DNA of 26,414 nt from a virus (IMGVR_UViG_2537561991_000013:1-26414); one strand, 5' to 3'; counted from the stretch's first letter, positions 5,251-19,434 are shown. The notes: generated by a model from the letters alone, not told the origin. Numbers and translations are program-made.

Positions 5251-6969
5251 ATGATTTTTAGGGATAGCTTGAGAGTATTACCTTATGGTCGAGTAGATAA
5301 TGATTTCTTCCAGATAGAAGAAAGACGTTCATGGAATGCAGGGCGATATTATTGGTCTAATAGAAGGATTTTTGGTTATATTGGAATTACTCAATCCAGT
5401 AATAAAGAGCTGAAAGATAAGTCGGGGAGAGAGGGATTCATAAGAAACCAGGCTGCAAGAGAACTGAAAACTATTATATCTAATTTGTTAACTGAACTTG
5501 CTGATAGATTTTTTGGTTCACGTTCTGATGACCGTAAAGAGCTTTTAGAACAAGTTAAGCGTGAAAAAGAGTTAAGAAAATCTGCTCAACAACAAGCTCG
5601 AAAATCAACACAAAAAAGTTTTTCAGAAGCTTTGAAGAATCAGACACCAGTTCTTGATGCTTCCTTGGAGGCTGTTAAAAGGCTGAAAACTAAGCTTGAT
5701 AAAACTGATGGTTCGTTAGATTTAAACTATCTTAAAATTATAGACAGTGATCTTACAAACTTAGATGCGTTGCGCAGTGAAATTAAAACGCCTATCAAAC
5801 CTCCAAAACTTGGAATGTATGAAGAGAAATATAGAGACTACAGAGATAAATTTAATGAGTTCTCTGCGTATATTCTACAAATGAAGTTAGCAATTAATAA
5901 ACTTGATTCTGAATTAAATAAACTTGAGCCTTCATTGTCAGCGAAAAATCACCTTGAAAAAAATCAAGGTATTATTAATTCTAAACTAACTAAGTTTAAT
6001 AACACGATAGAGGAGAAGATACATTCTCTTTTAAAAAAATGGGCCGATGAAATAAAGGTTGATCGAAGTGATTATTATGCTAAAACTATATCAGTTGTTG
6101 ATTCAATAGATAATGATTCACAAATTGAAAATGTGTTTAATTTGCTCGATAGTTTATATGTTGAGTCAGTTGATACCCTAACTTTCAAATATCAATCAAT
6201 AATAAAAGGTCTCGATAGATTATTTGAAGGTATAAACTTAGATTCAGCATTCTCATTATCTGAAGAAGAACGCTCATATTTTGAAGAAAAAGCTAAAAGT
6301 TTAAACGCGCTTGCACAGTTAGGTATTAGTGTTGAGATAATATCTCATGAACTTGAAGAAATGGATTCTATGGTAACCAGAGGACTAAACTCTCTTCCTA
6401 CTTCTGTAAAAGAACACCCTGGTTTTTCATTGGCGTTAAATGCTCACAGATCGCTTACTCAACAAATACGTTTCTTATCACCTTTGAAAATATCAGGTTA
6501 TCAATCCAGGCAGAGAATAACTGGAAAAAATATCATGGATTATGTCCTGAAGTTCTTTGGGGAGCGTTTCGAACGGCAACGAATAACTATTGAATTTAGT
6601 GAAGAGTTTAAGCAAATCGCAATAACAGATATACCATCAAGGATCTATCCTGTTTTTACTAATATTATCAACAATGCAATGTATTGGGTCAGTCTGTCAA
6701 ATAATAGGCTCATAAAGATTGGTTTTGTGAATTCTTTGGTTATCATAGCAAATTCTGGTCCGGCAATTGATACCGATGATATCCCGCGACTATTTGAACT
6801 ATTTTATAGCAAAAGAGCAAATGGACATGGGGTAGGTCTGTATCTATGTCGAGAAAACCTTGCTGTTGCACATCATAAAATATGGTATTCAGAACCTGAT
6901 GAAGGCGATAACTATTTAATAAAAGATGACGCTAATTTTGTGATCCAGTTCAATGGAGTGGAGTTCTAA
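5251..6969 (+). CDS. cytoplasmic histidine-kinase-like protein: coiled-coil-rich N-region, DHp-like H-box and HATPase_c catalytic domain; frame is open upstream to the IS3 end (5130), so the true 5-prime end is probably deleted
   Basis: C-terminal motifs: H-box-like VEIISHELEEMDSMV, N-box YPVFTNIINNAMYW, G1-like IIANSGPAIDTDD, F-box RLFELFY, G2 GHGVGLYLCRENLA. No hydrophobic TM segment. Visibly AT-rich; weak SD before the ATG at 5251; no in-frame stop between 5130 and 5251. Confidence 0.7.
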   Translation: MIFRDSLRVLPYGRVDNDFFQIEERRSWNAGRYYWSNRRIFGYIGITQSSNKELKDKSGREGFIRNQAARELKTIISNLLTELADRFFGSRSDDRKELLEQVKREKELRKSAQQQARKSTQKSFSEALKNQTPVLDASLEAVKRLKTKLDKTDGSLDLNYLKIIDSDLTNLDALRSEIKTPIKPPKLGMYEEKYRDYRDKFNEFSAYILQMKLAINKLDSELNKLEPSLSAKNHLEKNQGIINSKLTKFNNTIEEKIHSLLKKWADEIKVDRSDYYAKTISVVDSIDNDSQIENVFNLLDSLYVESVDTLTFKYQSIIKGLDRLFEGINLDSAFSLSEEERSYFEEKAKSLNALAQLGISVEIISHELEEMDSMVTRGLNSLPTSVKEHPGFSLALNAHRSLTQQIRFLSPLKISGYQSRQRITGKNIMDYVLKFFGERFERQRITIEFSEEFKQIAITDIPSRIYPVFTNIINNAMYWVSLSNNRLIKIGFVNSLVIIANSGPAIDTDDIPRLFELFYSKRANGHGVGLYLCRENLAVAHHKIWYSEPDEGDNYLIKDDANFVIQFNGVEF

Positions 6970-6970
6970 T

Positions 6971-8719
6971 ATGACAGTGGCAAATTATAATTCTCTTGTC
7001 CAGAAAACTTTCTGCGAAAATGCAATTCGTTCCGTTGTCATGATTGATGACGATTTTCTGACGTATTCTGAATCAATCAGGGCGTTGAATAACGAAGTTG
7101 ATTTAGACTACAACAAAATTGACTCATCTAAACGAGCCGCTACTCTTGAGAGCTTTTTTCAATCTAAAAATATGATTTGTGATGTTGACAATGGTTCTGT
7201 TAATTTCGATGTGGATCGGATTAGAAAATCAGATCTTATTATTGTAGATTATCATCTTGATAATAATGCACCTGATAAAACACTTAAACTATTACAAGAT
7301 TTGAAAGACTCCGATCATTTAAATATGATTGTAATATATACTAGAGAGAATTTAGAAACGGTTTGGATGCAGATATCATCGACTCTCAAAGGTGCTCTGG
7401 ATATCAACAGCTTGATCATTGACTACGATAATGAAGATGTCCAAAGTTATTGGGAAGACGTTGTATTACCGAACTTAAATGATAATGGTAATAAAGCTCT
7501 CACAAGAGATGAAACAATAGCCTATATTAAAGACAGTAAGCCTTGTAGAAGAATTAAAAGATTAATACATGATGATGCTGTGTTGGAGGAACAAAAGGAT
7601 AAAAACTTCATTGCAAAAATGATTGCAGAATATGCTGTGTCTAGAAATGCAATTATTTCTAGCAACACATCTGGCAATGTCATTCGGGGTGATGAAAGCG
7701 GAGTAAAATGGATTCAATGTGGTAATATCTTTGTCTCCCTATTTCATAAGGTTCAAGATGATCATGAAAACGATGGAGATAGGATTTGGCAAACTCTCAA
7801 TGATTCTCTCATTGAATGGAAACCATCTTATTATCAGTTAATAAAATCTGAAATTCAGAATGCAATCGAAGCTGAGGCTTTATCTTTTGTAAATCATTTG
7901 GCTAACGATCATTACGGTCAAGCTGCGTGGTTAAATGAGATATTAAAATCAGACTCGCCTGATATTAGATGTAGAAATATTGACTTTGTATTTGGTAATT
8001 TATCAGAAGAGCTTTATCAAAGACTTAAAAATAATAATACGCTGGATGAATTTATCAAAAGTGTTTTTGATAGCTATTCAAATGAATACGCTAACAGCGG
8101 AGTTGCTGCATTGCTCCAATATTGCTCTTCAAAAATGGATCTGCCATCAAATAATGATACTTATCACGAAATGTATCATGCTTTAAATATGAATTTGTCT
8201 TCAAAGAATTTTGAAGATGGTCATATTTCTACTGGCACTATTTTCTTTGATACAGAGTCGAACAAATGGTATTTATGTGTATCTGCGGCATGTGATTTGG
8301 TTCCTACTCAGGGTAACGACCCTCACCATGTAAGATTAAGTCCGCACAGGCTCATTAAAGTTCTGGAGCTTTTTAACGCCAGTCAGAGTAAAGCATTGCC
8401 ATTTGCTGAACATTCGAAATATATATATGTAATGCATAAAAATCAAAGAAAATATCTCTCTATTTTCGAAGGGGATAAAACGCTTCCTGTTGTTGATTAT
8501 ATGGTGGTGTTGAATCATGGAACAACAGTTGATGGCGAAGAAAAAAATATTATTTCTGCCGTGTTTTTAAGTAATATGGATGGCAACGTGCAAAATGTTC
8601 CTGTCCGACTCAAACTTAAATCTCAACTGAGAACTGGTTATGCAGAAAGATATCAGGCTATAGCGTCTCAGTATAGCTCAAGGATTGGTGTGGATTATGT
8701 ATCAATGATGCTACCATAA
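6971..8719 (+). CDS. receiver (REC)-like N-terminal domain fused to an unassigned ~430-aa C-terminal domain
   Basis: ATG at 6971 is 1 nt after the kinase stop, with GGAGTGGAG as SD (the ORF track starts at 6953). N-terminus has REC-like beta1 VVMIDDD, beta3 DLIIVDYHLD, beta4 MIVIYT; the rest has no motif I can assign. AT-rich like the upstream gene. Confidence 0.55.
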   Translation: MTVANYNSLVQKTFCENAIRSVVMIDDDFLTYSESIRALNNEVDLDYNKIDSSKRAATLESFFQSKNMICDVDNGSVNFDVDRIRKSDLIIVDYHLDNNAPDKTLKLLQDLKDSDHLNMIVIYTRENLETVWMQISSTLKGALDINSLIIDYDNEDVQSYWEDVVLPNLNDNGNKALTRDETIAYIKDSKPCRRIKRLIHDDAVLEEQKDKNFIAKMIAEYAVSRNAIISSNTSGNVIRGDESGVKWIQCGNIFVSLFHKVQDDHENDGDRIWQTLNDSLIEWKPSYYQLIKSEIQNAIEAEALSFVNHLANDHYGQAAWLNEILKSDSPDIRCRNIDFVFGNLSEELYQRLKNNNTLDEFIKSVFDSYSNEYANSGVAALLQYCSSKMDLPSNNDTYHEMYHALNMNLSSKNFEDGHISTGTIFFDTESNKWYLCVSAACDLVPTQGNDPHHVRLSPHRLIKVLELFNASQSKALPFAEHSKYIYVMHKNQRKYLSIFEGDKTLPVVDYMVVLNHGTTVDGEEKNIISAVFLSNMDGNVQNVPVRLKLKSQLRTGYAERYQAIASQYSSRIGVDYVSMMLP

Positions 8720-9243: not shown

Positions 9244-10473
9244 TTAGGCTACCAGAGCATTTGATCTTTGAGCTTGAACGTAATCACTCCACCATTGCAT
9301 CAAACTCTGTCGCTCTATCAGATATTCTGCACGATTGTATGCTGCGATAATTTCATCTTTTTTCGAGTGGGCAAGCGCTGCCTCAAGAACTTCAGCTCTG
9401 AATTTACCAGACTCCTCTGCCGCTGTTCGTGCAATAGAACGCATACCGTGAGCTACAAGCTCGCCTCCGAACCCCATTCGGATGATAGCTGCGTTGGCTG
9501 TTTGTTCATGCATATGATTAAGAGGCGCTTTTATGCTGGGGAAAACCCATTCTCTATGCCCACTTATTGATTTCATTAATTCAAGGATGCGCAAAGCTTC
9601 TTTACTCAAAGGAACTTTGTGAAGCTTTTTCATTTTCATGAAATCAGCAGGAATGTTCCAAATGCTGTTGGTTGTATCAATATCAGACCACCTTGCGCGA
9701 ACGGCTTCACCCGGACGAACCCATGTCAACAATTGCCATTCAATTAGCATACGTGTTTCCAACCGGATTGACGCATTCGTCAAAGATTCCATAAACCTTG
9801 GCAATTCGCTTGGGGGAAGGGCAGGCATATTTTGCTTTTTTGGTTTACTGAATCTTTGACCAAGGTTGTCAGCCGGGTTGAACTCAATAAGTTCTTCAGT
9901 AGCTGCCCACCGGAAGATTTCATTCAGACGTGAAATGATACGGCGTAGAGTTTCCAATACGCCTCGTTGCTCAATAGGATCAAGGTGTTGTTTTAAGAGC
10001 TTAGGTCGGATCTCATTGATAGGGACATTACCCAGACCGGGAAAGACATTTCTCTCTAAGCTGCGCCAGATGTCTGCTGCATGGTCTTGTGAGATACCTG
10101 ATGTCTTTACCTTCTCATCTAACCATTTCCGCGCTACGGCTTGGAGAGTGTGCTCAGTAGCACTCTTTAATGCCTTCGCCTTATCGTTGTTATGGATTTG
10201 GGGATCAACACCATTTGCCAGAAAGGAGAGATATTCATCACGTAAGGCTCTGGCTCTTGCAAGGGTAAGGTGAGGATATGTCCCAAGGCTCATTTTGGTT
10301 CTTTTCTTGCTCACTGGTACTGCATACCTGAAATACCAATTTTTCTTGCCTCCTTTCGCCAAAGGAGCGATTCGTAGAATCAGACCATCACCGTCAAACA
10401 AGTTGATTTCTTTATCGGCTGGCTTGGTGCTTTTGATTTCAGTGTCAGTGAGCTTCTTAGCGATTTTTGCCAT
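9244..10473 (-). CDS. P4-type tyrosine integrase (CP4-57 IntA-like)
   Basis: ORF 9244..10515; likely start at ATG 10473 (MAKIAKKLTDTEIK...) with GAGGG RBS; C-terminal tyrosine-recombinase motifs (HGMRS...LAH...AAYNRAEY); sits 165 bp from the ssrA 3-prime fragment in the same orientation, as ssrA-intA does in K-12. Confidence 0.85.
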   Translation of the reverse strand: MAKIAKKLTDTEIKSTKPADKEINLFDGDGLILRIAPLAKGGKKNWYFRYAVPVSKKRTKMSLGTYPHLTLARARALRDEYLSFLANGVDPQIHNNDKAKALKSATEHTLQAVARKWLDEKVKTSGISQDHAADIWRSLERNVFPGLGNVPINEIRPKLLKQHLDPIEQRGVLETLRRIISRLNEIFRWAATEELIEFNPADNLGQRFSKPKKQNMPALPPSELPRFMESLTNASIRLETRMLIEWQLLTWVRPGEAVRARWSDIDTTNSIWNIPADFMKMKKLHKVPLSKEALRILELMKSISGHREWVFPSIKAPLNHMHEQTANAAIIRMGFGGELVAHGMRSIARTAAEESGKFRAEVLEAALAHSKKDEIIAAYNRAEYLIERQSLMQWWSDYVQAQRSNALVA

Positions 10474-10575
10474 TTTGGGACCCTCGGTTTTTGGACCCTT
10501 CTTAGTGGGTCCCATTCAGGGTGCCATAACTCGTAGTTCTCAGCAATTCTCACTGGACGACAATAGACGTAAAAA

Positions 10576-10608
10576 AGCCCGCAGAGCTTGTGCTGTGTGG
10601 GCTTAGTA
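10576..10608 (-). terminator. weak hairpin with U-tract between the att fragment and the integrase
   Basis: AGCCCGCA...TGTGGGCT inverted repeat (one mismatch) flanked by an A6 run on the plus strand (U-run on the minus strand). Confidence 0.3.
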
Positions 10609-10638
10609 GACTTCATTGAACTTCAAACAACTAAAAAG

Positions 10639-10674
10639 TGGTGGAGCTGGCGGGAGTTGAACCCGTATCCGAAA
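10639..10674 (-). other. partial copy of the 3-prime end of ssrA (tmRNA): att-type junction, not a functional tmRNA gene
   Basis: TGGTGGAGCTGGCGGGAGTTGAACCCGtaTCCGAAA is the reverse complement of the tmRNA 3-prime end (...GGACGCGGGTTCAACTCCCGCCAGCTCCACCA) with 2 mismatches; the match stops after ~36 nt and the rest of ssrA is absent. Confidence 0.75.
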
Positions 10675-10868
10675 AATTCTTAACCAATTGAATATTAATG
10701 ATTTTTCTAATTTAAAATACCTCACGTGCATTTTACGTGCATATTGTAGTACCTCTAACGTCCTGATTCTGTCCAACATTTTGAAGTGTTTAGGCGCCAC
10801 TGGGGCGGTGATTAGCGCTGTTTTGTGCTGTTCATAGCACTTCAAGACTATTCAATTCAGAGCAATCG

Positions 10869-10897
10869 TTGAAGAATTACCCGTAAGGTAATATCAT
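10869..10897 (+). promoter_or_regulatory. sigma-70-like promoter candidate (TTGAAG - 17 bp - TATCAT)
   Basis: -35 TTGAAG at 10869..10874 and -10 TATCAT at 10892..10897 with 17-bp spacing, upstream of the hairpin at 10932 and the ORF at 11009. Confidence 0.35.
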
Positions 10898-10931
10898 ACT
10901 ATTTAGGTAACTGCGGTTATCACCATCAAGG

Positions 10932-10967
10932 GCCACTGATGACGCTGTTATCATCAGTGGCTTTTTG
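10932..10967 (+). terminator. strong intrinsic-terminator-like hairpin (11-bp perfect stem GCCACTGATGA / TCATCAGTGGC, 8-nt loop, TTTTT tail)
   Basis: Perfect inverted repeat 10932..10942 / 10951..10961 followed by TTTTTG; about 40 nt upstream of the RBS of the 11009 ORF, so it may be an attenuator or the end of a ~60-nt RNA. Confidence 0.5.
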
Positions 10968-10970
10968 TAC

Positions 10971-10992
10971 CTTCACTGCACAGCCAGTGAAG
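10971..10992 (+). promoter_or_regulatory. 8-bp perfect inverted repeat (CTTCACTG-cacagc-CAGTGAAG) just upstream of the RBS of the 11009 ORF
   Basis: Inverted repeat ends 4 nt before GAGGAG (10997..11002); candidate operator or translational control hairpin. Confidence 0.35.
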
Positions 10993-11008
10993 TGTTGAGG
11001 AGACTAGC

Positions 11009-11350
11009 ATGAGAACAGTAGCGAGAAGATCGATACAGACGATTGAGCGTCGGACTCAACTCGTCAGTTCTTTTGTTGACTCAAACACAGCAAACGAGTT
11101 CTTCGTGAGAAGACTGAGTGATCGTGTCTCCCCGGCACGTCAGCTGTTTATTGTGACATTGAACAATGAGGTTCGTGACGGTGACGTGATCCCGTTCGCT
11201 GAGATCGCCATGAACAAAGAAAAATTGCGCTATGTTGTGAAGCCAGCAGATCAGTATCCTCAGTATGTAAGCAGTAATCTGCTGAAGAAAATTGAAGCGG
11301 CAATTGCTCTATACATGCAGAAGAACTACAGGGAAATTAACTACCATTAA
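11009..11350 (+). CDS. hypothetical protein (113 aa), first gene of a two-gene cassette at the int-proximal end of the prophage
   Basis: ORF with GAGGAG RBS at 6-nt spacing; no recognisable motif; followed 11 bp later by a second ORF. Confidence 0.5.
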   Translation: MRTVARRSIQTIERRTQLVSSFVDSNTANEFFVRRLSDRVSPARQLFIVTLNNEVRDGDVIPFAEIAMNKEKLRYVVKPADQYPQYVSSNLLKKIEAAIALYMQKNYREINYH

Positions 11351-11361
11351 AAGGTTGCTGA

Positions 11362-12129
11362 ATGGCTCCTGCGTTAATACCTTCATATAACAAGGACTTG
11401 AACATTACGCCATTTGGCGAAAAACGTCTTATTGAGTCATTCTATTTTTTCACTGCCGAGGCTGGCTTACTGAGGGCTGATGAGTACATTGTCAGTTCTG
11501 GTGAGTTTCAGTACTACTTGGATGTGTATCAACTGGGATGTTCCACCGACGACTTTTTTTTAGACTATGGCAGTGACCTTCTTGATTCGAAGGTTCCAAT
11601 GCAGGATCTGGTCAATACCCTCTTGGGTCTTGATATGGTAGACGATAACAAAACGATAAGAATAGGTCGTATACAGTTCAACGACTTTAATTTTATCGAA
11701 GAGAACGGTCAGATGATGACCGGAAAGCAAGTGAAAAGCGCTGTTATCGCACAGGATTTCCAATCAGCAGGTTTGGCGCGTGAGATCTATAAAATGCTTG
11801 CGCGAAAGCATGAGTTTCTCATCTGCGATAACATTCAAAGTATTGCCGGTGGTGCTCTTTGGGCTAGTAGCATCATTCGAATTGCCGAGGTACGGATCTA
11901 CAATTCACGCACGAAGAAATTTATGGACATACTTGGTCCAGGTGCGCGTGGCGTTTCAGGTACTTTGCCATGGAGTGCGAATGATCTGTCTGTAGATGAG
12001 ATTGTTCGCTGGGGTCGTGCGTATGATGATGAAAACTGTTGTCGTCACATTGTACATGTTATCTGTAAGGACCGACTCATTGACGATCAATTTCATGATT
12101 ATGTTTCGATAGGTGGCGCGACAGAATAA
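11362..12129 (+). CDS. hypothetical protein (255 aa), second gene of the cassette
   Basis: ORF closely following the 113-aa gene; no recognisable motif; ends at a bidirectional terminator shared with the integrase. Confidence 0.5.
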   Translation: MAPALIPSYNKDLNITPFGEKRLIESFYFFTAEAGLLRADEYIVSSGEFQYYLDVYQLGCSTDDFFLDYGSDLLDSKVPMQDLVNTLLGLDMVDDNKTIRIGRIQFNDFNFIEENGQMMTGKQVKSAVIAQDFQSAGLAREIYKMLARKHEFLICDNIQSIAGGALWASSIIRIAEVRIYNSRTKKFMDILGPGARGVSGTLPWSANDLSVDEIVRWGRAYDDENCCRHIVHVICKDRLIDDQFHDYVSIGGATE

Positions 12130-12141
12130 CCATCAAAAAGA

Positions 12142-12164
12142 CCCGGCATTTGCCGGGTTTTTTC
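12142..12164. terminator. bidirectional intrinsic terminator (CCCGGC-ATTT-GCCGGG flanked by A-run and T-run)
   Basis: 6-bp GC stem with AAAAAG upstream and TTTTTTC downstream; sits between the convergent 11362..12129 gene and the integrase. Confidence 0.6.
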
Positions 12165-12170
12165 TTCAAA

Positions 12171-13349
12171 TCACTTCTTCATTCCAGATTCCATTGCGGT
12201 TTTCCCGTCGTATTCAGCCAGGTATTTACCGTAATTGCGGAACAGCATTTCCGGCCCCTTATGCCCCATCTGCCCGGCAAGCCAGAAAAGGTTTACACCC
12301 TGGCTAATGTGTCTGGTGGCGAATGTGTGGCGCGTCTGGTACGGGTTACGGTAGCGCACACCAGCTTTTTTCAGGGTCGGCACCCATGCTTTTTTACGGA
12401 TAGCGTCGGCGTTCGTCCAGGGATCTCCCGTTTTCGGATCGCTGAATATGAACTCACTTTTCATAAAGGTGTATTGCTTCTGCGCCTGCAGGGCCGCCAG
12501 CGCCTCACTGTTCAGCTCCACCTTACGGGTACCGGCTTTTGTCTTGGTGCCTTTAAGTACCCCTACGACACTGGCCGCCTGTATGTGCGCTGTATTACCT
12601 ATAAAGTCGATATCGGTCCAACGTAATGCGCATAGCTCAGAGCTGCGTAGCCCTGTATTGAAGGCGAAGCGGAACAGATTCTGCCATTCCTGATACTTGC
12701 AGTGCTGATATATGGCACTGGTTTCCGCAGGCGCAAACGGATCAACTTCGTAATCGTCGGCGTTCGGTTTACTGTCGACCACGTGATACCGGCTGGCGCT
12801 GACAAGAGTTACCGGGTTAATAGTCAACAGGCCATCAGTTACAGCCTCATCAATGGCGCTGCGCAGAAATGACAGGTTATTCCTGATTGTTTTCAGCTTA
12901 GTTTTTCGGCTGGCTATCCAATTTTTTAGTACCGCAGGCGTCAATTCTGTTACATGTAGTTTATGTAGTTCTGATAGTGCTGATAGACATTTTTCGTAAC
13001 CGCCAATGGTTGACGGCGACAGATTGCGGTTCATGCAAATTTTCAGGTATTCATCAAGATAGGACTTAATATTTTTGGTTTTCTTTACTACACCGAATAA
13101 CTCCAGTTTTTTGGAACTGGGGAAATATTTCGCATATTCAAACGTTCCGCTGGCGATCTGATTTTGTATCTCCCCTAGCAGGCGCTCAGCATATTTAATA
13201 CCACGTGTATTTGCCTCAAGCCGAGACAGGGGCTCCCTGCAAAGAACCCCTTTATATGTGAAAGTGATAACTAGTGTTGAAGCAGTTTTATGCTTACGAA
13301 TAGTTACTCCTCTTGGCAGAGATAATAATCCTTGTTCTTTCTTGCCCAT
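12171..13349 (-). CDS. lambdoid-phage tyrosine integrase (not lambda Int)
   Basis: 392-aa ORF from ATG 13349; C-terminal catalytic motifs RHTFATRH...GHKGPEMLFRNYGKY; an overlapping excisionase-like gene lies upstream. Confidence 0.85.
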   Translation of the reverse strand: MGKKEQGLLSLPRGVTIRKHKTASTLVITFTYKGVLCREPLSRLEANTRGIKYAERLLGEIQNQIASGTFEYAKYFPSSKKLELFGVVKKTKNIKSYLDEYLKICMNRNLSPSTIGGYEKCLSALSELHKLHVTELTPAVLKNWIASRKTKLKTIRNNLSFLRSAIDEAVTDGLLTINPVTLVSASRYHVVDSKPNADDYEVDPFAPAETSAIYQHCKYQEWQNLFRFAFNTGLRSSELCALRWTDIDFIGNTAHIQAASVVGVLKGTKTKAGTRKVELNSEALAALQAQKQYTFMKSEFIFSDPKTGDPWTNADAIRKKAWVPTLKKAGVRYRNPYQTRHTFATRHISQGVNLFWLAGQMGHKGPEMLFRNYGKYLAEYDGKTAMESGMKK

Positions 13350-13513
13350 TTTGAAACCTCTATTAAGTCGACCCAGCGTTCTTTAACTCCGTCGACTTTT
13401 AATACATGAACCCCTTCTTTCCATATTCCTCTTTGTATCCGTTTGTTAACGGCATCAACCGTTTCTCCCGCGTCGCGGCAGTAGGTTGATATAGGCACGC
13501 AATCCAGCCCCAT
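13304..13513 (-). CDS. excisionase-like small DNA-binding protein
   Basis: 69-aa ORF overlapping the integrase start by 46 bp (typical xis-int arrangement); basic, with W/K-rich C-terminus. Confidence 0.5.
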   Translation of the reverse strand: MGLDCVPISTYCRDAGETVDAVNKRIQRGIWKEGVHVLKVDGVKERWVDLIEVSKWARKNKDYYLCQEE

Positions 13514-14037: not shown

Positions 14038-14606
14038 TCATTCCGGATGCTCCTGAGCCACATTGAAATCGCCATGATCACGACAAGGCATCACAACAAA
14101 TTCAGGATTGCCATACATTGAGTTGATGATGGAATCAAACTGAATTCTGACCGCTTGCCCGTCACCGGAGGAACGTAACTGGACGGGAATAAATTTACGC
14201 TCACGACCAAACATCTTCTCTGGATAACTCAGGTAACCCGCCTGGATCACCGGGTGTGTACAGAGGTCAAATTTTTTCGGAATGATGCGTTCCAAATCCG
14301 GAAAACAACCGTCCACCAATTTAATGCCGGTAATGGACAGCCGGCGCTGAAACTGGTCGCGATGAACAGGATCGGCTCTTTACTAAAAATCAGCTCTGTC
14401 GTTTCGGCTTTGGCCGGGACGCCACCTTCGAACTGGACAATGATGTTTTTCTTCGTCCGGATGCCGTGAGTCATGCGCAGTGCTACGAAACCATTGGTTG
14501 CCTCAATATGTTTTGGCGTGATGTGAAGACCGTTCAGGTAATAACGAACGTCGTTTTTAGCAGCGCACACCAGAGCGGCGCGAATAAGTTTTGACTGGAT
14601 GATCAT
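14038..14606 (-). pseudogene. DNA polymerase III beta-clamp (DnaN)-like gene split into two overlapping frames (frameshift or authentic disruption)
   Basis: ORF 14247..14606 has KNDVRYYLNGLHI...EATNGFVALRM (compare DnaN QDVRYYLNGMLFE...VATDGHRLAV); ORF 14038..14319 in another frame has VDGCFPDLERIIPKK (compare DnaN VDGRFPDYRRVLPKN). Together they are about half the length of cellular DnaN. Confidence 0.5.
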
Positions 14607-15352
14607 GCTTTATCCTCCCATCCGATTACCTGAAAAAGCCCCATCTTCGGGTGATACCAGCGTGTGCCGCGTGGTTCAGCCTCTGACATCATTTGGTGGA
14701 ACGCCGCCATAAATGTCTCAAGCTCGACGACAGCCCTGCGAGACAACAGACCGTCCGGAGTCATAAATTCGTGCGTGTCGGTAGGGATGTGGTAGGCGTT
14801 GACCAGATTCCGACACTTGGCGTCACTCATTCCGCTTTTGGCTACCACCTGGCGGTAACCGACATATCCGGTGCGCATTGTGCCGCGTTTGATGTTCTCC
14901 ACAGCTTTGGTGACCGTTTCGATCTTCTCTTCAACATGACTCAGGCGCTTCTGCTGGCGAACGGCATCGGCGGCCATTGCAGCGATCATCTCCATTTCCG
15001 TCAGCGGCGCGTGAGTTCGGAAATAGCTGTTAACCAGTTCGCGCTGAACCTGCCATGCAAGAGCATCGTTAAAAGGCTTCGTCAACATCAGGTAACCAGA
15101 CTCGAAAAGAATGATCCCTTTGGCAGTTCGCGCGGCAAAGGCATCAGAAAGTGACTCCGTACGTATTACGTCCGCAGTCATTTCAAGAAAATCCACCCCT
15201 TCGATAAAGTGAGAACGGTTGCGGTTAAACGCAGCACGGGCGGTACCTTCCGGGCGCTGGTGGACGTCATCAATTATTGCAAATGTCACAACACGCTGAC
15301 CGCGATATTCGATTACCGGAAACTGTTTGTTGTTGATGGTTACAATATTCAT
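14603..15352 (-). CDS. phage ORF6N-domain protein (antirepressor-like)
   Basis: Start at ATG 15352 (MNIVTINNKQF...) with GGAGAT RBS; N-terminal segment VVTFAIIDDVHQRPEGTARAAFNRNRSHFIEGVDFLEMT resembles the ORF6N signature (RN...F.EG.DF..LT); the domain assignment is from memory. Confidence 0.5.
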   Translation of the reverse strand: MNIVTINNKQFPVIEYRGQRVVTFAIIDDVHQRPEGTARAAFNRNRSHFIEGVDFLEMTADVIRTESLSDAFAARTAKGIILFESGYLMLTKPFNDALAWQVQRELVNSYFRTHAPLTEMEMIAAMAADAVRQQKRLSHVEEKIETVTKAVENIKRGTMRTGYVGYRQVVAKSGMSDAKCRNLVNAYHIPTDTHEFMTPDGLLSRRAVVELETFMAAFHQMMSEAEPRGTRWYHPKMGLFQVIGWEDKA

Positions 15353-15395
15353 TTTTATCTCCAGACAGCCCGGCGTGTAATACCGGGCATATGTA

Positions 15396-16223
15396 TTACT
15401 TAACCTGAATAAATGGTGTGTTGGCACCGCTGGTCATGTATTGCGGCAGTGTACCGTTCCACTTGTTGATGGCTTCCAGCTCCATAACACCGGGGTTCTG
15501 GCGCAGAGCTTCACCGCGTAAACGAATAGCATCGGCTTCGGCCTGGGCTTTTGTGCGAATCGCATCTGCCTGTCCGGCAGCTTCCGCGCGCAACATGTTG
15601 GCTTCCGCTTCGCGCTGTTTTACTTCCTGCTCGCGTTGCAGGGTTTTCTGGTTCGCCGTGACTTTGGCATTAATGCTGTCGATAACAGTAGGTGGGTACT
15701 CCGGCTTACCCACATATGAGAGGCTCATTACCTGAATACCGATGGGCGTCATTTCTTCCTGAATGTCTTTAAGAGCTGCATCCAGCAGCTCAGACTTGCC
15801 GCCGTCGATAAATTTGTCGGTGGTCATTTTGCTGGCCAGTCGGTTGAGTGCGTCGGCTATCTTCTGGCGCAGGTCGGTGTCGGTAATGTCGTCCACGCCT
15901 TTGCGGTAGGTCTGAAAGACTGTGGTAACTTTGGATGGATCAACTTTGTAGGCCACGCCGATGTGATAGCCGATGGTTGTACCGTCACTCATCTGGAAAC
16001 TGAATGGATCATCGTAGGTCTTCATCTGCTTAAAGGTCGGGAAGATGTAAACCTCAGTGTTCCATCCCGTCCAGTAGCGCCCAACACCGACCACTTCACC
16101 GACGCCTTTATCGTCGCCCAGTTTGTTTACTTTGATGCCCACATTACCAGGCTCAACGCGATCGCAACCGACAAGGCCAATGGTCGGCAGAACAAGGGCT
16201 AAAGCAAAAAGTAATTTTTTCAT
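15396..16223 (-). CDS. SPFH/band-7 (prohibitin-like) lipoprotein
   Basis: Signal peptide with lipobox (MKKLLFALALVLPTIGLVGC), SPFH-like core and an Ala/Glu-rich coiled-coil C-terminus (AEANMLRAEAAGQADAIRTKAQAEADAIRL). Confidence 0.6.
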   Translation of the reverse strand: MKKLLFALALVLPTIGLVGCDRVEPGNVGIKVNKLGDDKGVGEVVGVGRYWTGWNTEVYIFPTFKQMKTYDDPFSFQMSDGTTIGYHIGVAYKVDPSKVTTVFQTYRKGVDDITDTDLRQKIADALNRLASKMTTDKFIDGGKSELLDAALKDIQEEMTPIGIQVMSLSYVGKPEYPPTVIDSINAKVTANQKTLQREQEVKQREAEANMLRAEAAGQADAIRTKAQAEADAIRLRGEALRQNPGVMELEAINKWNGTLPQYMTSGANTPFIQVK

Positions 16224-18741: not shown

Positions 18742-19434
18742 TTATGCAAAACGGTGTAGTGTCATAGGCCAACTGACAATTACTTTTCCGTCAATGTGAA
18801 GTTGTTCGAAGTCTTCCGGTTCGATAGCCCAATCCTTGTAAGCTGGGTTGTCAGATATCACCGTTAGAGTATCTTTGATTTTTTGAAGTCTTTTGATGTG
18901 CGATGTTCCAGAGTATGTAAAGGCGTATATACCATCACCATTAAATGTGCGAACTGATACATCTACAAATACCAAGTCTTCAGGGTCTATTGTGCCTTTC
19001 ATACTGTCGCCGTGGGCGTTTATTGCTTTGATTGCTGATGCTGGTCTGCCGCCAAAAACTCTTGATGCGTATCCTGGTTCTATCGCTATAGATCTGACAA
19101 TATCAGGAAAATCAGAGTTATAACTACCAGGTCCGCAACTATATCTGATGTCTAAAACATCCACGACATACGAATCAGTAACCCAATCTTCAGAAATGTT
19201 ACGTATTTGGTGTGAGTCTGCAGAGGTCACGATTTCCATTGGGCCAACACCCGATGCGAGCCATTCCGGGTTAACGCCCAAAACTTTTGCTATTTCGACT
19301 GTTTTTCTGGAACCGTTGGCTTTGTTAAGTAGTTGATTAACACTGGACTGAGCCATACCCACTTCTTTGGCCAGCCTACCTTGCGTAAATTTTGCGTTGC
19401 GCATAGCTAAATCAAGTCGTTCTGAAAATGTCAT
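18742..19434 (-). CDS. CI-like prophage repressor (N-terminal XRE HTH, C-terminal S24 LexA-like peptidase domain)
   Basis: 230-aa ORF; N-terminal HTH (FTQGRLAKEVGMAQSSVNQLL), C-terminal GDSM serine motif and downstream lysine; divergent from a Cro-like gene. Confidence 0.8.
   Translation of the reverse strand: MTFSERLDLAMRNAKFTQGRLAKEVGMAQSSVNQLLNKANGSRKTVEIAKVLGVNPEWLASGVGPMEIVTSADSHQIRNISEDWVTDSYVVDVLDIRYSCGPGSYNSDFPDIVRSIAIEPGYASRVFGGRPASAIKAINAHGDSMKGTIDPEDLVFVDVSVRTFNGDGIYAFTYSGTSHIKRLQKIKDTLTVISDNPAYKDWAIEPEDFEQLHIDGKVIVSWPMTLHRFA

Follow-up and report, generated by a model that had tools for sequence, protein, structure and literature searches.

Toxins of the GNAT fold have precedent on mobile elements (PMC9177977). 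In the GNAT/DUF1778 type II family of toxin-antitoxin systems, the antitoxin carries a DUF1778 ribbon-helix-helix (RHH) domain or, in one clade, a DUF4065 domain (PMC9177977). GNAT domains are also found in Brc113 and BrcP, single-gene anti-phage cassettes of integrons that are linked to phage resistance (bioRxiv 10.1101/2024.07.02.601719). Here, we describe a pair of genes, A and B, from a 26,414-nucleotide stretch of viral DNA (IMGVR_UViG_2537561991_000013:1-26414), the whole of which is called the window below. The operon architecture of A-B is like that of the GNAT/DUF1778 (RHH) type II systems TacAT, AtaRT, KacAT, ItaRT and GmvAT (PMC9177977, PMC6698736). The region is shown to be an autonomous, horizontally mobile two-gene operon, which is carried as cargo in the slot between the attachment site (att) and the integrase gene (int) of an ssrA-integrated lambdoid prophage.

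A mobile two-gene operon in the att-int slot

The operon consists, in order, of a promoter-like element, a palindrome, a leader terminator hairpin, gene A, gene B and a bidirectional terminator. A first-pass annotation of this DNA had proposed two tightly linked open reading frames (ORFs) that are oriented against an int-xis operon, are preceded by a structured leader, end at a bidirectional terminator and lie next to an att remnant. Each of these elements is present. The ORFs lie where the annotation placed them, with a gap of 11 bp, and are on the plus strand, whereas the integrase gene and a xis-like ORF are on the minus strand. The leader folds into two hairpins with a minimum free energy (MFE) z-score of -2.66. 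Downstream of B, a 7-bp G+C stem (12141-12158) has AAAAA before it and TTTTTT after it, which makes the terminator bidirectional; it lies 12 nt from the stop codon of B and 13 nt from that of int. The att remnant is evident from matches to transfer-messenger RNA (tmRNA) that are below the Rfam threshold (10639-10730, minus strand, E 1.5e-5), and from positions 10635-10674, which are 95% identical to the ssrA end annotated in phage CP-1639. ARAGORN detected no complete tRNA or tmRNA in the window, and Rfam gave no match at the gathering threshold. At an E-value threshold, the Rfam matches were limited to fragments of tmRNA and IsrM in the att region and included no known leader RNA.

The same annotation read the pair as prophage cargo of the moron type, and the comparison with related phages bears this out. 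The genome records of the inducible phages PhiR12_1 to PhiR12_5 start at att (window positions ~10650-10680) and contain the cassette, so that A and B are phage cargo between attP and int. It had also been suggested to check whether homologous prophages carry different cargo at this position, and they do. In prophages of O26:H11 and O103 strains, which share the att flank and have an integrase that is 93% identical, a DUF4760 gene replaces A-B. Homology to the prophage of O26:H11 str. 11368 ends at 10756 and restarts at 12199, with the DUF4760 gene in between. In E. coli, the window-type cassette occurs in only 10 of 5426 complete genomes, and the region is 100% identical to that of strain E110019.

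The same A-B unit occurs at many unrelated positions, and at least seven distinct insertion contexts were found. The att-int slot is occupied in the window, in Atlantibacter and in Photorhabdus khanii. Elsewhere, the pair lies between the tail tube, chaperone and tape-measure genes of siphoviral prophage tail modules, inside myoviral baseplate modules, or in the interval between the Q antiterminator and holin genes, where it is antisense to both. In SSU5-like phage-plasmids of Salmonella, E. coli and Klebsiella, it is found past the lysis genes and directly before parA. In Proteus chromosomes, it forms a lone insertion in a phage-free interval between peptidase-U32 and ABC-transporter genes. 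Finally, in Acinetobacter baumannii, it resides on a 9.9-kb MOBQ blaOXA-72 plasmid without phage genes and on plasmids of ~110 kb. This set of contexts is as expected for addiction or defence cargo, and is unlike that of a phage structural or replication function. Two simpler descriptions were rejected: that the pair is always co-oriented with late genes, by the antisense Q-holin context, and that it is restricted to phages of Enterobacterales, by the Proteus chromosomal and Acinetobacter plasmid copies. The pair is also abundant. More than 1000 contigs contain the exact sequence of window B, and 4621 blocks of the sequence collection index the version of A from Klebsiella phage-plasmids. Homologues are present on 375 plasmids of PLSDB, the blaOXA-72 plasmids of A. 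baumannii among them.

A and B are genuine genes. This follows from their ratios of nonsynonymous to synonymous substitution (dN/dS of 0.01-0.13 for both, with synonymous sites saturated while the proteins are still 85-94% identical), from their matches to PHROG families and from more than 30 homologue clusters for each. A is a full-length member of phrog_2594 (8.7e-26) and B of phrog_3307 (1.4e-59). Among 5.8 billion proteins, there are 35 homologue clusters for A and 31 for B. A profile search with A gave 115 clusters, and an exhaustive hidden Markov model search with B gave only 56 clusters at 50% identity (1.84 billion representatives). The first-pass annotation had named clear homology to structural or replication functions, or a lack of conservation in related prophages, as grounds against cargo; instead, no homology to structural or replication proteins was found and the pair is strongly conserved.

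The two genes are inherited together. Among 119 fetched loci, an A homologue lies directly upstream of every B homologue, the lone exception being at a contig end. This pairing persists to about 30% identity. In SSU5_031/032 and PhiR41_1, where B is about 29-33% identical, the partner aligns to A with hhalign probabilities of 99% and 98%, and on the Acinetobacter plasmid A aligns with 98% probability and B with 100%. The A and B ORFs of the Klebsiella phage-plasmids overlap by 16 bp. Two further loci stand apart. In Photorhabdus akhurstii, two whole A-B cassettes lie in tandem about 600 bp apart (locus L013, 7967-9039 and 9633-10711), and both A proteins are about 41-42% identical to window A. 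In Yersinia enterocolitica (locus L033, 7123-9482), the gap between the tail tube and tape-measure genes holds both A-B and an antirepressor-type module (Arc, Bro-N, KilA-N/ANT), making this gap a hotspot for multiple cargo.

B is dispensable and is often lost while A is kept. A homopolymer tract within B (11554-11561) is T8 in the window and in 15 other loci, and T7 in PhiR12_5 and three IMG/VR loci. As the T7 allele comes from independent sources, sequencing error is unlikely; the difference could reflect slippage-prone on/off variation or be a lineage marker. In all five PhiR12 records, the T7 frameshift splits B into two pieces with A intact, and the recorded host is MG1655 or E. coli C. 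In total, E. coli has three different B-inactivating alleles, namely the T7 frameshift and two that truncate the protein, with A intact in all. B is frameshifted in X. indica and deleted in one Proteus locus (L042). In Proteus, one exact A sequence occurs on 81 contigs; an intact B occurs on about 22 contigs, and a B truncated in at least four ways on about 43. Among the 119 fetched loci, none has an intact B with a broken A. This asymmetry is suggestive.

The two proteins and their possible function

The first-pass annotation recognized no motif in either protein, which is incorrect for B. Here, residues 134-139 (QSAGLA) correspond to the motif A loop of GNAT proteins, and B is a GNAT-fold protein. 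B is 255 residues long and strongly acidic, with an isoelectric point (pI) of 4.8; across its homologues, the pI has a median of 4.9 and the net charge is about -13. The AlphaFold model (predicted local distance difference test, 77; predicted template modelling score, 0.76) has GNAT topology, with the mixed alpha/beta order of that fold (beta1-alpha1-alpha2-beta2-4-alpha3-beta5-alpha4-beta6-7), to which three strands are added before the core and an extension of about 60 residues after it, at the C-terminus. Motif A (Q134-S-A-G137-L-A139, family consensus RGAGLA) falls between the predicted strand E118-129 and helix H138-149, that is, between beta4 and alpha3, and in a Pfam-GNAT protein the aligned loop reads RGKGLA. 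Among 29 sequences, neither G137 nor L138 varies. In a deep alignment of 44 sequences, G137 is not among the invariant residues, which are Q123, Y143, D156, Q159, W167 and W204.

At the level of sequence families, B is an orphan. It has no Pfam match at E<=1, the curated GNAT models (Acetyltransf_1/7/10 and others) miss it, and sub-threshold Acetyltransf_1 matches are found in only 4 of 44 relatives, with a best E of 0.074. A PDB search with the B profile returned nothing significant, AAC(2') appearing at an E of about 0.4. The weak tail of the exhaustive B search consists of proteins with Pfam GNAT domains, which include giant multi-GNAT phage proteins that share a D..QS..G..LW motif. B is thus a very divergent member of the GNAT fold in which the acyl-CoA pyrophosphate-binding loop is retained, and is probably an acyltransferase. 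Among the giant proteins, P0114 (1429 residues; locus L115, 8001-12290, on a metagenomic phage-like contig) has a ParB_N-like region and three GNAT-like stretches with the 'D..QS..G..LW' motif, and P0110 (1884 residues) is of the same kind. Both look like multi-domain phage 'polyvalent' proteins.

A has 113 residues and is basic (pI 9.8). Its predicted fold comprises five strands along with two helices, one short and one long. This falls short of a complete GNAT fold with cofactor loop: the C-terminal half and the glycine loop are missing, and the corresponding loop reads KPxDQYP. A is best described, from this prediction, as a truncated GNAT-like fold without the CoA loop and as the obligate partner of B. 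A fold search of BFVD with A gave no match at E<=0.001. PDB sequence searches with the family profiles of A and B gave nothing significant, and Pfam, NCBIfam and PADLOC scans of the two proteins gave nothing usable. The idea that A is an internal duplicate of B was ruled out by an hhalign probability of 0.1%. Database entries for A often use internal starts, giving proteins of 81 residues (586 contigs), 65 and 63 residues that drop the invariant N-terminal RSIQTI motif and, with it, the most conserved 32 residues. These short entries are not truncations; they are the same ORF with an alternative start annotated. Similarly, the 45-residue A genes of two loci (L021 and L022) are gene-caller artefacts in which the ORF is intact. 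The conserved form of A is the full 113-residue ORF with its GAGGAG ribosome-binding site.

The first-pass annotation had listed defence systems, toxin-antitoxin pairs and exclusion genes as usual cargo at this position, and the indirect evidence favours something like the second of these. By analogy with described systems, A-B is tentatively proposed to be a toxin-antitoxin-like addiction or abortive-infection module, in which B would be an acyl-CoA-dependent effector and A its cognate restraining partner. With acetyl-CoA or a different acyl-CoA as the donor, B would modify an essential target in the cell. The strong acidity of B makes naked tRNA a less likely target than a basic protein or a polycation. 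A would bind B and hold it in check, and autoregulation may result from binding of the promoter palindrome by A alone or in complex with B. B would be freed when the element is lost or when an infection triggers the loss of A, with the outcome that the prophage or plasmid is stabilized and superinfection is possibly aborted. Judging from gene order, circularization would place the cassette directly downstream of the late operon, across attP. The leader terminator would then attenuate the cassette's own promoter and hold expression low in the lysogen, yet antiterminated late transcription would read through. The proposal is supported by the type II toxin-antitoxin-like architecture (small gene first, tight coupling, promoter palindromes) and by the obligate pairing, the spread over contexts typical of addiction or defence cargo, the decay of B only, the strong purifying selection on both genes and the precedents for GNAT toxins and GNAT anti-phage cassettes on mobile elements.

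Several observations weigh against this proposal. A has no Pfam family at E<=1 and no RHH, helix-turn-helix, DUF1778 or DUF4065 signature, and its predicted structure is not RHH and contains no DNA-binding fold. No family of PADLOC-DB v2.0.0 matches A or B at E<=1. B is acidic and larger than the known tRNA-acetylating toxins. In the SSU5-like phage-plasmids, the position of the pair is fixed across deep divergence, which is more like a core phage gene than swappable cargo. The bias in decay is statistically weak, as B makes up 69% of the target and the neutral probability that 8-9 independent events all fall in B is about 0.04-0.05; furthermore, ascertainment favours B fragments, since short fragments of A are less likely to be catalogued. 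Finally, a bicistronic GNAT locus that falls outside the DUF1778 clade need not be a toxin-antitoxin system (PMC9177977).

The main alternative, which we regard as somewhat unlikely, is a non-toxic two-subunit acetyltransferase. Here, A would be an adaptor with a GNAT-like fold and no catalytic role, which recruits or shapes the substrate site of B. The target would be a host or phage component, for example a nucleoid, ribosomal, receptor-pathway or incoming phage protein, the role would be in lysogenic conversion, exclusion or anti-defence, and nothing would be poisoned. Such an enzyme would account for the GNAT-type structural matches of both proteins and for their strict co-inheritance and tight spacing, which are as in stoichiometric complexes. 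In Yersinia and Pantoea, A is conserved at least as well as B (68-70% versus 48-57% identity), unlike fast-evolving antitoxins, and an acidic B with a basic A fits an enzyme-adaptor pair that works on basic substrates. The fixed position in SSU5-like phage-plasmids agrees with it as well, as does a 1429-residue, ParB_N-containing phage protein in which GNAT modules remotely related to the B core are repeated. By itself, however, a two-subunit enzyme does not explain the recurrent, independent loss of B with A kept, or the presence of the pair on a 9.9-kb resistance plasmid and as a lone chromosomal insertion, and promoter palindromes such as these are a usual feature of toxin-antitoxin operons that regulate themselves.

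The acidity of B and its insignificant similarity to AAC(2') are the only grounds for regarding B as a small-molecule resistance or detoxification enzyme, which would acetylate an aminoglycoside, a polyamine or another cationic compound with A as an accessory. This is improbable: the E-values are not significant, the PLSDB resistance-gene prediction on the 9.9-kb Acinetobacter plasmid flags only blaOXA-72, and the frequent natural inactivation of B and the predominance of the pair in temperate phages speak against a selected resistance. In addition, AAC and SpeG-type enzymes are not known to have an obligate non-catalytic partner. A role in phage development, in which the pair would be a late-expressed factor or a lysis-lysogeny accessory needed for regulation or for making virions, is more improbable still. 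The pair is usually co-oriented with late genes and lies within tail, baseplate or lysis-proximal regions, and the placement downstream of the late operon after circularization, with antiterminated late transcription that could pass the leader terminator, would suit such a role. In contrast, MG1655 or E. coli C is the recorded host of the PhiR12 phages, in which B is frameshifted, and copies of the pair are found antisense to late genes, on a phage-gene-free plasmid and in a phage-free chromosomal site. Furthermore, its position varies among phages and it has no homology to structural or replication families.

Returning to the addiction or abortive-infection module, a more specific version is somewhat unlikely. 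Here, A-B would represent an undescribed class of two-component mobile modules, in which an acidic, sequence-orphan GNAT acyltransferase is checked by a truncated GNAT-like pseudoenzyme (with no RHH antitoxin), the target is a basic protein and not tRNA, and addiction is combined with abortive infection. The class would extend across temperate phages, SSU5-type phage-plasmids and carbapenem-resistance plasmids of Acinetobacter. The pair is common, though its annotation is 'hypothetical' in every public source. If A-B is a toxin-antitoxin or defence system, its GNAT effector would have a novel type of partner and would probably act on a new target, and the system would matter for how stably phage-plasmids and resistance plasmids are maintained. 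A non-toxic heteromeric acetyltransferase would represent a new phage-borne host-modification activity.

Coordinates, leader and neighbouring genes

The features of the cassette and its surroundings are collected in Table 1.

Table 1. Features of the A-B cassette and flanking prophage DNA, in window coordinates
Feature	Position	Strand	Details
Gene A	11009-11350	+	113 aa, ATG start
Gene B	11362-12129	+	255 aa, ATG start
ssrA (tmRNA) 3'-end remnant	10635-10730	-	att site and left prophage edge; context, outside the cassette
Exchangeable cargo segment of the att-int slot	10757-12198		bounded by the homology breaks versus the O26:H11 str. 11368 prophage
Putative sigma-70-like promoter	10869-10897	+	TTGAAG-17-TATCAT
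Palindrome	10906-10921		GGTAAC-TGCG-GTTATC, at about +1; read directly from the sequence
Terminator-like leader hairpin	10928-10966	+	core GCCACTGATGA/TCATCAGTGGC, then TTTTT; terminator scan, MFE and centroid structures
Second leader hairpin	10971-10992	+	CTTCACTG-N6-CAGTGAAG
Shine-Dalgarno sequence	10997-11002		GAGGAG, six nt ahead of the gene A ATG
T8 homopolymer within gene B	11554-11561	+	T7 alleles frameshift B
Bidirectional intrinsic terminator	12141-12164		common to the A-B operon and int
Prophage tyrosine integrase (lambdoid)	12171-13349	-	context; Arm-DNA-bind_2 and Phage_integrase domains
xis-like ORF	13304-13513	-
P4-type integrase	9244-10515	-	left of the ssrA remnant

Within positions 10500-12400, the count of promoter-like matches is one site, which is not above chance. 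This site matches the consensus at 9 of 12 positions, its position is conserved between lineages and the terminator downstream is clear. DNA homology to an IMG/VR locus (L064) resumes at 10863. Divergent cassettes have a promoter-like element in the corresponding place, with the palindrome 7-12 nt downstream of it; in Photorhabdus, the element reads TTGAAC-17-TATTAT. The palindrome is perfect (GATAAC-N4-GTTATC) in PhiR12 and Atlantibacter. At the same position, Pantoea and Xenorhabdus have ATTACC-N4-GGTAAT and Photorhabdus has TATCAC-N5-GTGATA, and the SSU5-like and Acinetobacter versions have other palindromes at the corresponding position. A promoter-like element and a palindrome recur in every lineage, with half-sites that are lineage-specific. 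The palindrome may be either an operator or a 5' RNA stem-loop.

The first hairpin of the leader is a consensus structure across nine divergent enteric cassettes, with compensatory changes in 5 of 10 pairs. This terminator-like hairpin is missing from the Q-holin (antisense), Photorhabdus and Xenorhabdus versions.

Several neighbouring features were noted in passing. The PhiR12_5 record (locus L002, 779-1387) runs ~1.5 kb past att and there contains a fragment of the P4-type integrase and an IS-related ORF, which suggests aberrant excision or a hybrid genome. The alternative cargo of O26:H11 str. 11368 (locus L117, 1673-2581) lies on the opposite strand and encodes a 302-residue DUF4760 protein; its PADLOC match is only marginal and the domain is mentioned in only one paper that was found. 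Beside the P4-type integrase, on the ssrA island to the left of the prophage, window positions 5251-8719 (plus strand) hold a gene pair encoding proteins of 572 and 588 residues. The former has HEF_HK and HATPase_c domains and the latter a Response_reg_2 domain (PF19192), and their RefSeq labels are 'ATP-binding protein' and 'response regulator receiver domain'. Neither has a significant PADLOC match, the 588-residue protein having a marginal one (E 0.0026). Carried on an integrative island, these two genes resemble a conflict or signalling system of the two-component kind. In the early-left region (14603-16223, minus strand), overlapping ORFs encode an ORF6N-domain protein (274 residues) and an SPFH/Band-7 protein (275 residues), with no PADLOC match for either. 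A CI-like repressor with HTH and S24 domains is at 18742-19434.

Comparison with known systems

No paper was found on the A-B genes, and no matching system was found in the GNAT, defence and toxin-antitoxin literature, although papers beyond that coverage, or catalogues later than PADLOC v2, could describe them. The PHROG families of both proteins, phrog_2594 and phrog_3307, are annotated as 'unknown function', and neither the A-B pairing nor the GNAT fold is recorded there.

Phage morons are autonomous units of promoter, gene and terminator, such as lambda bor/lom and HK97 gp15. Like these, A-B is a self-contained unit that is found at varied places in related and unrelated temperate phages and is present or absent in homologous prophages, and MG1655 or E. 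coli C is the recorded host of phages whose B is frameshifted. Unlike morons, A-B consists of two genes, for an enzyme and its partner; it also occurs on a small plasmid and in a chromosome, and has a terminator hairpin in its own leader. With Brc113 and BrcP, the pair shares the state of a mobile cassette with a GNAT domain, whereas those are single genes with a Pfam-recognizable GNAT and no A-like partner. Proteins in which a catalytic GNAT is joined to a GNAT-like module without cofactor binding present the same combination, but A and B are separate polypeptides without detectable homology to each other.

The bicistronic layout of the GNAT/DUF1778 systems, with a small partner gene next to the GNAT gene, is present here. 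In that family, the toxin acetylates aminoacyl-tRNA and so arrests growth, and its partner neutralizes it; for A-B, the repeated loss of B with A retained is the only indirect pointer to such an activity. The proteins themselves differ. In place of DUF1778, RHH or DUF4065, A carries a truncated GNAT-like fold, and B is invisible to the Pfam GNAT models, has 255 residues with N- and C-terminal extensions and is strongly acidic. Taken by analogy, A-B would work most like a GNAT type II toxin-antitoxin system, yet it lacks the antitoxin domain by which that family is defined, and the concept of a moron or cargo operon fits it.

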